A stretch of 63,886 nt of DNA, the filler included, from Craspedostauros australis (lineage: Eukaryota), in assembly GCA_030167865.1 (NCBI GenBank). It is 10 parts of 10 records of this genome, joined end to end, with 100 filler letters (N's around TTAATTAATTAA, not from the genome) between each part and the next. Parts side by side here need not be neighbours in the genome. Positions count along the whole stretch, not along the records: positions 19,912 to 42,404 come from JALAGF010001115.1; 9 more parts are not named here. One strand, 5' to 3'. A model generated the notes under the pieces. That model had not been told where the DNA came from. It worked only from the letters and a program-made list of their open reading frames with translations, and made no database searches. Shown here piece by piece: positions 22,570 to 26,506 of the stretch. Numbering within the stretch: the stretch's first letter is position 1; every line of letters starts with the position of its first letter. Position numbers and translations under genes: made by a program.

Positions 22570-23969
22570 TGTGATGGTGATCGATCCTTCTACTCCAAAC
22601 CAACGCTGCACTCCAATGCTATTCCGTTGCGTCGTTGCGTCTGTCTCTCCTGTCGATGCTCGTTGGTGACCGTAACGATCTACTTCATGCTCTGGATTCT
22701 GGGAAACCTCCGGACTCAGAACGATCACCAACACCACCAACGCCACCAACGCCAGACAGTATCCGCGGCACATCCTCACCACCGAATCCTTGATGTTGTT
22801 GGATGGGTTGTGTTGGTGTCATTCGTATCTTTTCAATATCTTCTTGCGTTCGTTAGTCTTGATGTTGAAGGACGAACCTGTCCGTCAACGTGACATTCCG
22901 TGTTGAATTGGTGCAGAATGAGTTTTCGAACACTTTACGAACGACAGAGAACTCCTTCGAACGAAAAGAACAATCATGATTGGAAAACTCGTGATTCGAC
23001 GGTCGACTCGATTGGTTGTGAGAAAGGAACTTCAACCTCGACTGTGGGAAGGAATTTCGCTTTCGTTTGGATGGTGCGACATGCGTAGATTTTTGTACTA
23101 AGTATACTGAGATTCACTCCGCTTCAACAGGAACAGAGATTCCTTGAGCCGGCTTGATTCGATGAACCATGACGTACTTTTTCTTGCAGTTGTTTGGTTT
23201 GCTGATTGGTGTCTGAGTTGTGATTGACTCATGATGTCGATGGGGGTTGAGCTTCGGTGACACGATACGATTCAGTGGCTGTGGGGAATCTTCGTCCATC
23301 AGAGCGCGTTTCGTTTGCGGTGGAGGAGTTCGTTTCTCTTCGTGTCTGTGTTGCGCCGTTTTTTTCTCGGAGAGTCCGGGTTTCAGCTGTTCATCGTGGT
23401 GGATTCATCGCGCTAAATGTTCGATTGATCACGTAAGAGGTCCGTCTCGCGATACGCCGTGCTGTATCGTGTTGGATGCAAACCTGGTTGAAGTCAGCAA
23501 AACGTGAAAAGTGAACCATTTGCTGTGCCGCGAACCGTGCAAGTACAGACAGCAGTACCTGTGCGTAGCAAGTATACGTGAAGCAACTGCACTGCCCACC
23601 ACCCACCCACCAACAAACACAAAATCCCAATCAACCACACAAGATCAACGCCCACATCCACGCAAGCCGCAGCATCAGCATCAGCATAAAACAACCAGAG
23701 CGGTTGCGATCAAGATCGGCATCAACATCAACAAGGACACCCAACGCCCATAAAACCAACAGCATCAACAACATCGGCAACACCAAAGAAGAAAGGAAAG
23801 GAGAGACACGTCGCAAGTGAGATCCAAAGCAATCCAATTCAAAGGAAAGCAAAGGAAAGCAAAGGAAACGAACAAACGGAGAGAAAGATCCGAGAACGGC
23901 AGAACACAAACGCACGAACACAGACAGGAACATCAGAACCCAAATCAAAGCCAAATATCATCCCTCACC

Positions 23970-24995
23970 ATGACGACCATCATGCAACCGCAGATCACGC
24001 CGATTGCGTTCACCTCACAGATCCTCAGCCAAGACACAAGCGCAGTGACTGCACCGGTGGGCATGACTTCGATGGAAGCAAGAAACCGCAGCTGTGACAT
24101 CATGTTGACTCAGCACAACGACGCAACAAGCACCGCCACGACAGCACCAGTAGTCGTGCCAGACAGCGCTGCTTCGTGCACAACTTCGCCTACTGCCACC
24201 ACCATCACCACAGCAGCCACAGCAGCCACAACAGTCACAGCAGCCACAACAGTCACAACCACCACCACTACTGCCACCGCAACAACCACCACAGCTGGAC
24301 CAGCACGAAAACGCACGAAAACTTCAGGATCGAGCGCGGCAACCAGCAAGAAAGCCAAGAAGCCGCAGATGAGATACGACCCCGACGTGCCGATGACCAA
24401 GGAGCAGGCCGCCGTCTGGCGTCGCGAACAGCGCAGGAAGCGCAACCGGGAGAGCGCGGCCGCGTCCCGCCAGAAGCAGCGCGATCGCATCACCGAACTC
24501 GAAGTCGAGATCAACGGTTACCAGACCAAGCACTCCTCCATCATGGCCAGGATTCAAGAATTGGAGCGCATCGCCGCCGCCAAGCAGATCACCATCACAT
24601 CCACCACCGAGACTCCGGCTGCCACAGACACCGACACCACTCCTTCCATCACTGTCATGCAGCCAGAATGCGTCACTGATGACGAAGCATCCCGTGCTGG
24701 TCGACACTCTGACGCCAGCAGCATCTCCGCCGATGCCACCGCATGTCCGCACACGACCGCACCAGCTTCGCCTGGACCGGCGTTCGTGCCTTCCTCGCTT
24801 CCCGTTGCAGTCTCACCCATTCCGTCTAACGTTGACTTTCTTGATTTCTCCCACACGCACATGCCACAGACACAGACACAACAAGAGCAGAAGCTCAGCC
24901 TTCTGGATGAGGTCAACGTTGCCATCCCAAGCACACACCAATTGAACATGGATCAGCCACCACTAAGGATTATCTCACGACAAGCTACGTCATGA
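23970..24995 (+). CDS. bZIP transcription factor, unspliced form (341 aa); HAC1/XBP1/bZIP60-like candidate
   Basis: Basic region and zipper WRREQRRKRNRESAAASRQKQRDRITELEVEINGYQTKHSSIMARIQEL. ACCATG start at 23970 after an A/C-rich leader. Confidence 0.92.
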   Translation: MTTIMQPQITPIAFTSQILSQDTSAVTAPVGMTSMEARNRSCDIMLTQHNDATSTATTAPVVVPDSAASCTTSPTATTITTAATAATTVTAATTVTTTTTTATATTTTAGPARKRTKTSGSSAATSKKAKKPQMRYDPDVPMTKEQAAVWRREQRRKRNRESAAASRQKQRDRITELEVEINGYQTKHSSIMARIQELERIAAAKQITITSTTETPAATDTDTTPSITVMQPECVTDDEASRAGRHSDASSISADATACPHTTAPASPGPAFVPSSLPVAVSPIPSNVDFLDFSHTHMPQTQTQQEQKLSLLDEVNVAIPSTHQLNMDQPPLRIISRQATS

Positions 24996-25539
24996 ATCAA
25001 CCAATCAACCATTCAAACAAACACACATACACACACACCAATCCAAACCAGTCAGCACCCACCATCCAACAAAGCCTGACTGCCGTACCCATCGTCGTCG
25101 ATGATTGGGTGAGATCGAGGTCACAAACCGACGAGACTTGGTCGCCGCCGCGCCCAATGGACATTTGATGCCAAGAGAGTACTCAGCAGCAGCTTCAACG
25201 CTCTGCGGTCTCTCGCTATTGGCTTCTCCCCCCGCAACACTGTCGGTGGCATGCATGCACACGCACGCATGCCACCATCGCACAGTTTGCTCTAATTACG
25301 TTCCGGTTCTAGCGATAGAATGACAGCGACGTCCCGTCCATCCGGCATCAAACCCGGCCGCGCCAAGTCCAGTCGCCTTTGTCCGACCAACCATCGAGCA
25401 CAATCATCGACGACAACAAACCGTCCAGATGACGAAACGAAAGTCGCTGCATCATGCGCTCCATCATTCAAAGATGGAGCAATCGATTGCTCGGCAACTC
25501 GTGTCATCGCTTCAACGACATTTAAGATCACCATTCCAG
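24985..25539 (+). other. Putative non-spliceosomal (IRE1-type) intron, 555 nt, highly structured
   Basis: Both junctions lie in 7-nt hairpin loops (AAG|CTAC and CAG|CAGT). No phase-compatible GT/GC donor near the end of the bZIP ORF. Nested internal inverted repeats; removal joins the frames. Confidence 0.65.
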
Positions 25540-25814
25540 CAGTGAAGATCAACGGTGCTGTTTCCACTAGTTCAATCGGTGTCTCGGACCCACAAGCGCA
25601 ACTACAACTGAGCAGTCAGTTGTCCGTCCTCAACCAGCCAGAGCCCTGCCTGTCGTCGTCATCGTCGCCGGCCGTGCAAACGGATATCAAGTTGGAACCT
25701 CTGGACACATCCCTCTTCCAGCCCAAGGTCGAGCCACTCCCGTCCCTCCTCGCGGATGTGGAATCGGAGGATGACTTCGGTGAGTTCCTGTTGGACGCCG
25801 TTCAATGGTTGTAA
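25540..25814 (+). CDS. Second coding exon of the bZIP gene (acidic/hydrophobic activation-like tail); spliced product 429 aa
   Basis: Same frame as the bZIP ORF. Reads AVKINGAVSTSS...IKLEPLD...KVEPLP...VESEDDFGEFLLDAVQWL*. Confidence 0.7.
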
Positions 25815-26506
25815 GCCATCAACGGCTTGCGTGCATTTGCATGCAATCGCAGAGCTGCACGCGCAGAAGAAGTCGCGTACGGTACATACCATAGTACACA
25901 GCATAGCACGGGGTCTACCGCCGTTATGAGTGCGACAGACCACACAGTTGCGCAGCTGTGCACTTTACTCATCCGATCGGCACGACCAATGGCCGGATGC
26001 AGGGCAGAGAACTCCATTTTGGATCACCACGTCCGCCGTGCCACATGTTGCCCACAAGGGAACACGTACACATCAGGAGACGGCAGCAGCTGCAGCAGTA
26101 CTTCTCTACGAGTACATCTGCTCCACTGCTCAGCCGACAACTCCTTCCATTCATTTCAGTAAAAGCTATTGTAGGAACTCAAACAGTATTAGGGAAAACG
26201 TATCATCATTCATCGCTAAAAGACCTGTTGTGGACTTGTGGAAGTCTATGCTTGAGAGTGTAGAGATCATCAAGTTTGAATTTTGGCGCGAAATTTGTGC
26301 GTTCGCGGAACTCGAGTTTCGGCCATGGATCATGAGGATTTTGTCGCCCCACAACATGCCGACAACACAAACACTCTTGTTCGTCCATTGCGTCCCACTG
26401 ATCTGTTGAAAGCAACACCATACTCGCAATCGTATCATACACCAATAATCGTGGGACAATCACCGCATCCTTGATCTCAACCGCTACGCCCGTCGAGCAC
26501 AGGACG

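Follow-up and report, generated by a model that had tools for sequence, protein, structure and literature searches.

A long exon-exon stem in a diatom-type bZIP mRNA with a predicted IRE1-type intron in Craspedostauros australis

The stretch of DNA analysed here, referred to as the window, comprises 63,886 nucleotides (nt) from Craspedostauros australis (GCA_030167865.1) and carries a bZIP gene in two coding parts between positions 23,970 and 25,814 (within the part from JALAGF010001115.1). An initial annotation had proposed that exon sequences on both sides of a putative intron of this gene zip together for ligation, as in the bifurcated stem-loop of XBP1 and HAC1. According to the present analysis, this exon-exon stem is very likely the S1 stem of such a structure in a diatom-type bZIP mRNA with an IRE1-type non-spliceosomal intron at 24985-25539. 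The junctions, the conservation and the layout of the element all support the proposal. Moreover, the junction support that does not depend on the reading frame, which the annotation had expected from the stem, was obtained, as the spliced contigs of relatives, the stem found in every unspliced locus folded and the fit of each exon arm to its own partner in every lineage agree with one another.

The bZIP gene, its junctions and its intron

The open frame 23754-24995 encodes a bZIP domain (Pfam bZIP_1, E 2.2e-06, 28.1 bits at a cut-off of 27.6; bZIP_2, E 7.1e-05) and terminates at TGA 24993-95, and the same frame resumes at 25296 and closes at 25814 with ...EDDFGEFLLDAVQWL. The encoded sequences read ...IISRQATS, followed by the stop, and downstream ...IPAVKING...FGEFLLDAVQWL, again followed by a stop, so that both halves of the gene are present, 555 nt apart. 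The gene is composed of the following parts:

23970, plus strand: earliest ATG in the open frame, with the true start uncertain
23970-24984, plus strand: exon 1 of the bZIP gene, ending at the G before the 5′ cut, with the junction set by homology with natural spliced contigs
24985-25539, plus strand: predicted non-spliceosomal intron of 555 nt, in frame (a multiple of 3), CU...AG, by homology of both sites
25540-25814, plus strand: exon 2, coding for AVKINGAV... and a conserved acidic tail ...EDDFGEFLLDAVQWL, then a stop

Relatives of the bZIP part with E <= 0.001 numbered 545 among 1926 candidates, the named ones being the diatoms Seminavis robusta and Nitzschia inconspicua. Nine of the 16 relatives that were fetched terminate just past ...ISR[PQH]A, and the other seven run on through ...ISR[PQ]AVKI... 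to the tail ...F.EFLLDA..WL; the acidic tail is also joined to the bZIP part in the spliced contigs of relatives. The splice predicted for the window bypasses TGA 24993 and exchanges the C-terminus for the frame ending in ...EDDFGEFLLDAVQWL. Judging by its acidic and hydrophobic make-up, the acidic tail may activate transcription. A scan of 23500-26500 with Rfam returned no match at the gathering score and 7 matches at chance level.

For the analysis of the junctions, metagenome contigs were scanned with alignment A1, which yielded 80 related environmental loci. Together with the window, 81 sequences were examined and assigned as follows:

46 of 81: unspliced, both sites present (window included)
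6 of 81: unspliced, contig without the 3′ site
21 of 81: spliced, with the junction ...GAC[C/A][A/U]G-CAGUGAAGAUC...
6 of 81: unusable, without the bZIP core
2 of 81: unusable, without a recognisable 5′ site

The relatives (21 spliced and 51 unspliced among the 80 loci) possess spliced and unspliced RNAs with exactly this junction. Two pairs of spliced and unspliced contigs have flanks that are 100% identical, over 200+200 nt in L045/L046 and over 200+61 nt in L034/L048, and L045 equals L046 minus 457 nt. By their names, both contigs of a pair belong to a single assembly and are numbered consecutively; the two isoforms of a gene, spliced and unspliced, occur next to each other within an assembly.

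At both cuts G^C (the caret marks the cut) is invariant in 39 of 39 unique sequences per site. By homology, the window would be cut after G24984 and after G25539, giving the junction G24984^C25540 and a predicted spliced sequence that reads ...CGACAAG^CAGUGAAG...; the junction slides by 2 nt, AG being the final dinucleotide of exon 1 as well as of the intron. Boundaries of the GT-AG, GC-AG or AT-AC type are not possible anywhere in this 2-nt sliding range, and the sole upstream AG^GT donor (24911/24912), joined to 25540, leads to Q and then a stop. A spliceosomal reading was rejected for these two reasons, and the intron boundaries are, as read from the sequence, non-canonical. Intron lengths range from 217 to 512 nt in the relatives and from 217 to 555 nt with the window, whose intron is the longest (median of unique sequences 345 nt). 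The remainder of the length modulo 3 is 0 in 11, 1 in 14 and 2 in 11 unique sequences, hence there is no phase preference. The intron was also searched for elsewhere in the window; no second copy was found, and a transposon copy was therefore rejected as its identity.

Contigs from a single sequencing run (X1), the RNA nature of which is a guess, include none on exon 1 or the intron and no joint, and they neither show nor exclude splicing. One contig of this run spans 25538-26198 (661 nt, depth 27.9, no mismatches, no loose end) and was not counted as evidence. Its start at 25538 corresponds to the first base of predicted exon 2 minus the AG common to exon 1 and intron, which is where a de Bruijn contig would start if spliced and unspliced forms branch there. 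Its end at 26198 is possibly a poly(A) site.

The exon-exon stem and the co-evolution of its arms

The four helices that had been described for the unspliced form are present and nested, namely ATTGAAC 24941-47 with GTTCAAT 25570-76, TGGA 24949-52 with TCCA 25563-66, CAG 24954-56 with CTG 25558-60 and CACC 24958-61 with GGTG 25554-57. The complementarity of ATCTCAC 24972-78 to GTGAAGAT 25542-49 was found as well, with one bulged A. Folding of 24930-25590 with RNAfold, which had been suggested as a check, gave -222.2 kcal/mol compared to -162.3 +/- 6.4 kcal/mol for dinucleotide shuffles (z -9.4; 0 of 20 as good), and the outermost stem of the minimum-energy structure consists of the four helices and a fifth one at 24935-39/25578-82. 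In the context 24876-25643 the pair probabilities of the stem are 0.94-1.0, with the exception of the terminal pair 24958:25557 at 0.48. In these folding models the described pairings exist and are predicted to be thermodynamically predominant.

The codon-preserving control that had likewise been suggested was applied to the duplex 24930-68 x 25551-89, with a result of -29.7 compared to -18.1 +/- 4.6 kcal/mol; 13 of 1000 synonymous-codon shuffles were as stable, and so were 25 of the 2342 segment pairs with equal spacing taken from the rest of the window. These tests on the window only, with arms of about 39 nt, place the stem in a tail of about 1%, which taken alone is suggestive and not decisive; the evidence for the stem is decisive because of the comparative data from relatives.

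While the individual pairs of the initial annotation stand, its stem extent does not, since the stem is far longer than claimed. With longer flanks the stem of the window reaches exon-1 position -67 and exon-2 position +63, beyond which a shifted register carries it to about -144/+151. The inverted repeat I4 (24935-47/25570-82; 13 nt, 92% complementary) is part of it. The arms were delimited as follows:

24918-24961, plus strand: 5′ arm of the exon-exon stem (S1); 24941-24961 in the initial annotation, with 24935-39 added by the fold and 24918-24931 and beyond by longer flanks
25554-25602, plus strand: 3′ arm of the exon-exon stem (S1); 25554-25576 in the initial annotation, extended to 25582 and to 25598-25602

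Among the relatives, the minimum-energy fold contains 26-50 exon-exon pairs in 38 of 38 unique unspliced loci, each folded as a 70-nt exon-1 flank, the intron and a 70-nt exon-2 flank. In the usual register, exon-1 position -i faces exon-2 position about +(i-10), with a shift of a few bases in one clade; when 260-nt flanks were used for 12 loci, the register extended to about -90 to -130 in several of them. By coordinate arithmetic only, at an offset of 10 the first codon positions face first, second face third and third face second positions, so that the wobble base of each arm is free to complement the other arm.

The two arms were then treated as a duplex between exon-1 positions -110 to -17 and exon-2 positions +8 to +105, which excludes the conserved cores. 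This test covered 37 loci (L048 was dropped because its flank is too short). In 34 of 37 loci none of the 100 dinucleotide shuffles matched the stability of the duplex (median z -5.8); the exceptions were L031 and L063, with 1 shuffle as stable in each, and L033 with 10. For the window, the duplex energy is -49.9 compared to -33.3 +/- 4.4 kcal/mol (z -3.8). When partners were swapped between loci, matched arms had a mean energy of -59.2 kcal/mol and mismatched arms one of -36.1 kcal/mol, which is about the level of the dinucleotide shuffles. For 26 of 37 exon-1 arms their own exon-2 arm was the best of the 37, and in lineage representatives (clusters at 70% identity or less) the own partner was best in 24 of 24. 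As the median identity of the arms between these representatives is 0.62, the arms have diverged and yet each matches its own partner, from which it follows by an alignment-free measure that the two arms co-evolve. Conservation and co-evolution of the exon arms across many diatom lineages are thereby shown.

Cut-site hairpins, rearrangement and intron body

At its inner end the stem is followed by two small hairpins, each with a predicted cut site in its loop, and by the folded intron. The following elements were delimited:

24975-24995, plus strand: 5′ splice-site hairpin (S2), UCA 24975-77/UGA 24993-95 and GAC 24979-81/GUC 24989-91 with the 7-nt loop AAGCUAC 24982-88
25526-25550, plus strand: 3′ splice-site hairpin (S3), GAUC 25526-29/GAUC 25547-50 with two alternative inner folds
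24968-24978, plus strand: exon-1 strand of the predicted post-cleavage extension (ES1-like); its partner before cleavage is the 5′ end of the intron
25542-25550, plus strand: exon-2 strand of the predicted post-cleavage extension, GUGAAGAUC; its partner before cleavage is the 3′ end of the intron
25094-25414, plus strand: long internal intron hairpin of about 320 nt with a perfect 14-bp outer helix (I1, 25094-25107/25401-25414, 100% complementary)

In S2 the predicted cut lies after G24984 and the unspliced stop TGA 24993-95 is located in the 3′ strand of the hairpin. Pair probabilities are 0.92-0.93 for GAC/GUC and 0.54-0.59 for the UCA/UGA extension, and the site, GAC(AAG^CUAC)GUC with the loop in brackets, follows the rule of a cut 3′ of the G at position 3 of a 7-nt loop. 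RNAalifold recovered the 3-bp stem with the 7-nt loop from 39 unique sequences, in which the column pair 20/32 is GC in 31 and UA in 3, with both sides changed in the 3. In the extended 5′ hairpin, exon 1 forms 11 pairs with the initial ~17 nt of the intron; pairing amounts to 74.6%, compared to 26-42% when the partner is slid by 1-3 columns, and the 19 double-change cells of this hairpin were reached by 0 of 500 shuffles. The 5′ hairpin carries compensatory changes, and the window has UCA/UGA in place of the common UCU/AGA. The 5′ loop of most relatives is CAGCAUA, with C1, G3 and a variable position 6, and relatives with A at position 1 of this loop still occur spliced.

The outer helix GAUC/GAUC of S3 has a pair probability of 0.97. 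Inside it, either UUC 25534-36/GAA 25544-46 closes the 7-nt loop CAGCAGU 25537-43, which holds all three conserved bases (C1, G3 and G6), or CAUU 25532-35/AGUG 25541-44 closes a 5-nt loop; the cut is predicted after G25539. At the 3′ site, UUCCnGCAGUGAAGAUC hardly varies among 39 sequences, and the same holds for UUCCnG^CAGUGAAGAUC; the conserved AAGAUC upstream is separated from it by a spacer of variable length. Because of this invariance, covariation cannot choose between the 7-nt and the 5-nt loop.

To model the spliced state of the window, 24876-24984 and 25540-25643 were joined in silico. The product folds at -65.3 kcal/mol (z -4.1; 0 of 200 shuffles as stable) with 53 exon-exon pairs and the junction in an 8-nt loop. 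The extension toward the ligation point that the initial annotation had expected after intron removal was recovered for CAC 24976-78/GUG 25542-44 (probability 0.99-1.0) and failed for AUCU 24972-75/AGAU 25546-49 (0.09-0.19); the minimum-energy spliced fold has the competing register GAUU 24968-71/GAUC 25547-50. Positions 24975-78 are thus predicted to exchange partners as in ES1, being in S2 before cleavage and paired with 25542-45 in the spliced form. For 20 natural spliced contigs, RNAalifold predicts an equivalent 8-bp hairpin as the consensus, in which all pairs are invariant and covariation is therefore absent. Four GAUC-like elements, at the end of exon 1, the 5′ end of the intron (GAAUC), the 3′ end of the intron and the start of exon 2, can swap partners (24968-24999 and 25526-25550, and the same places in the loci). 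As GAUC is self-complementary, the arrangement resembles a four-way junction able to branch-migrate.

The internal intron hairpin is modelled to bring the two intron ends together. The intron body folds with a z of -8.5 in the window and below -2 in 24 of 24 lineage representatives (median -7.3), and as it is strongly folded in all tested lineages, the whole element forms one large folded unit. In 30 of 41 unique 5′ sites no more than 3 codons separate the cut from the unspliced stop, which lies in the 5′ hairpin or immediately downstream of it and is often a UAG spanning the loop end. A terminating ribosome would sit on the 5′ cut site, having opened the exon-1 arm.

The length of the stem bears on a different function for it. 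The stem could be real and selected and have a main job other than tethering, such as slowing or blocking of ribosomes, mRNA stability or localisation, or provision of a double-stranded RNA platform for an RNA-binding protein, with help in splicing being secondary. Such a role would suit a stem that is far longer than tethering seems to require and lies wholly within coding sequence, an exon-1 arm that terminating ribosomes must unwind because of the position of the unspliced stop, and an intron body that is strongly folded too. We regard it as improbable, however, as the stem stops exactly at the two cut-site hairpins in every lineage and reaches the junction after splicing, the geometry that matters for XBP1 splicing in the part of PMC4687415 drawn on here.

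Weight of the evidence, proposed mechanism and known systems

Several results weigh against the reading of the element as an IRE1-type intron held by a stem in the sense RNA. The 5′ loop of the window, AAGCUAC, has G3 only and is without the C1 and G6 of the usual CNG^CNGN, and at the 3′ site of the window the canonical 7-nt loop has a probability of 0.01 compared to 0.74-0.95 for the fold with the 5-nt loop. Splicing in the organism of the window itself would follow by homology, the RNA evidence for the joined form coming solely from relatives. The long version of the stem (93 x 96 nt) does not stand out in the window from its synonymous-codon shuffles, 156 of 1000 of which are as stable (z -1.0); this control retains the amino-acid sequences, which are themselves part of what co-evolved. 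Column-wise covariation of the stem was not found either. MAFFT and RNAalifold on the 20 natural spliced contigs recovered only the invariant 8-bp core, because the outer-stem register varies between clades, and one clade of 7 sequences, which is too conserved, has 0 double changes among 35 stem pairs. A fixed-offset count over 58 sequences detected no universal register, with registers varying by clade. As column-wise covariation is uninformative here, the alignment-free partner-swap test was used. Finally, the antisense duplex is more stable than the sense duplex in 31 of 37 loci, by a mean of 7.3 kcal/mol, and G-U pairs number 241 in antisense and 143 in sense. The probable source of this antisense excess is base composition, the exon-1 arm being rich in A (A 0.32) and the exon-2 arm opposite it in C and U (C 0.31), so that A frequently stands opposite C in the sense RNA of the exon flanks of the 37 loci. 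Since the strand test is unfavourable, the case for the sense RNA rests on the cut-site loops and the spliced RNAs and not on wobble asymmetry.

A strand test that does not favour sense RNA would be expected as well if the complementarity were a neutral remnant of an inverted repeat at the DNA level, for instance of a fold-back insertion that brought the intron, without any RNA function; a long inverted repeat also makes up the intron body of the window. If it were neutral, however, the complementarity would be lost with time, and the diverged arms fit their own partner best in every lineage representative, while mismatched partners fall to about shuffle level. Both arms are moreover coding, their protein sequences differ between lineages, and a second intron copy is missing from the window. 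We therefore give this explanation very little credence.

The departure of the 5′ loop of the window from the IRE1 consensus leads to the question of the machinery. With the role of IRE1 being deduced and ...UUCCAG^CAG resembling a 3′ acceptor, the intron could be removed by the spliceosome at non-canonical sites or by tRNA-splicing endonuclease at a bulge-helix-bulge, the stem being merely the substrate. The spliceosome is opposed by the boundary result given above, which holds at any allowed sliding position, and by the donor result. Against other machinery in general, the base before either cut is an invariant G located in a small hairpin loop, CAG^CAGU in the 3′ loop is like the XBP1 sequence C(C/U)G CAGC in the part of PMC4687415 used here, and the gene encodes a bZIP protein to which splicing adds an acidic tail, as it does in HAC1, XBP1 and bZIP60. 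Removal by such machinery is accordingly considered very improbable.

For the IRE1-type bifurcated stem-loop the following course of events is proposed. A stem would form between the last ~45 to >100 nt of exon 1 and the first ~45 to >100 nt of exon 2. Its tip would bear two small hairpins, in each of which the end of an exon pairs with an end of the intron and the loop contains the invariant G^C cut site; the strongly folded intron body would lie between them. An IRE1-like endonuclease would cleave after G24984 and after G25539, with the exon-exon stem holding the exons together across 555 nt. The released exon ends would then pair mutually through CAC 24976-78/GUG 25542-44 and a GAUC-type helix, displacing the intron and aligning the ends for a tRNA-type ligase. 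The joined mRNA would bypass TGA 24993 and read ...IISRQ-AVKING... to the acidic tail ...FGEFLLDAVQWL. By analogy with known systems, the nuclease may be IRE1, the exons may be joined by a ligase of the RtcB or Trl1 kind, and splicing may respond to stress of the endoplasmic reticulum (ER). Tethering of the exons and ejection of the intron may be what the stem is selected for.

HAC1 of Saccharomyces cerevisiae is a bZIP mRNA with a long non-spliceosomal intron; without splicing its frame terminates shortly past the intron start, and with splicing the protein acquires an activating C-terminal tail. The element described here is like HAC1 in the long non-spliceosomal intron of a bZIP mRNA, the unspliced frame ending just inside it and the tail gained by splicing. 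The best-known long-range pairing of HAC1, between the intron and the 5′ untranslated region, blocks translation, whereas the long-range pairing here joins exon 1 with exon 2.

In the XBP1 mRNA, according to the part of Peschek et al. 2015 (PMC4687415) drawn on here, S1 is an exon-exon pairing that can be extended to a long bulged stem, S2 and S3 are exon-intron arms, and ES1 arises after cleavage with ejection of the intron while the exons remain base-paired; IRE1 cuts 3′ of the G at position 3 of a 7-mer loop with the consensus C(C/U)G CAGC. The present element resembles metazoan XBP1, as far as that text goes, in the bZIP mRNA with two hairpins whose predicted cuts follow the third loop base, a G (at the 3′ site of the window the 7-nt loop is the minor fold), in the sequence of this candidate 3′ loop, which fits the consensus, and in the central exon-exon stem extendable into a long bulged stem. 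Further, exon ends that are on the intron before cleavage pair mutually afterwards, in the window by prediction, and the restored junction lies in a loop of another size (8 nt in the window, 5-6 nt in XBP1). The XBP1 intron comprises 26 nt in the excerpted text of PMC4490496, in contrast to 555 nt in the window and 217-512 nt in the relatives. Unlike in XBP1, the intron body is itself a strongly folded rod, and the 5′ loop follows the consensus less strictly, reading AAG^CUAC in the window and CAG^CAUA in most relatives. The intron phase is also not fixed, and the in-frame intron of the window removes a stop rather than shifting the frame.

Among photosynthetic eukaryotes, the excerpts of the respective papers describe twin hairpin loops with three conserved bases each (PMC4891664) and an intron of 23 nt (PMC12781897) for plant bZIP60, and splicing of Chlamydomonas CrbZIP1 by CrIRE1 (PMC13545648). 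The likeness of the present gene to these IRE1-spliced mRNAs is at the level of the bZIP domain. A literature search that left subscription journals and supplements outside found no IRE1 substrate of a diatom or stramenopile, the nearest algal case being CrbZIP1. In the accessible text of a cross-eukaryote survey (PMC4891664) the words diatom, stramenopile, Thalassiosira, Phytophthora, heterokont and alga are all absent. The kind of feature is already known, and its lineage and scale seem to be new.

A wider reading, which we put forward tentatively and consider rather doubtful, is that the unfolded-protein response of diatoms runs via an undescribed IRE1-bZIP switch whose RNA element is a single folded unit, with a co-evolving exon-exon duplex of 50 to >100 bp that is entirely coding, two cut-site hairpins of which the 5′ one has a relaxed loop, and an intron of 217-555 nt shaped like a rod. 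Beyond tethering, the duplex would link the translation of the unspliced mRNA to its ability to be spliced, since a ribosome has to unwind the exon-1 arm and terminates within the 5′ hairpin, and it would make two protein segments evolve as mirror images.

The comparative data support, independently of the reading frame, that a diatom-type bZIP mRNA undergoes an IRE1-type splice, and they supply exact junctions and a testable RNA structure for a group that includes major marine primary producers. The logic of S1 and ES1 of the 26-nt XBP1 intron would accordingly hold for introns of several hundred bases too, and the two exon arms represent a clear natural case of two coding segments that co-evolve to maintain a long duplex. 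The ratio of spliced to unspliced contigs could mark ER stress of diatoms in cultures, in metatranscriptomes and in the field.

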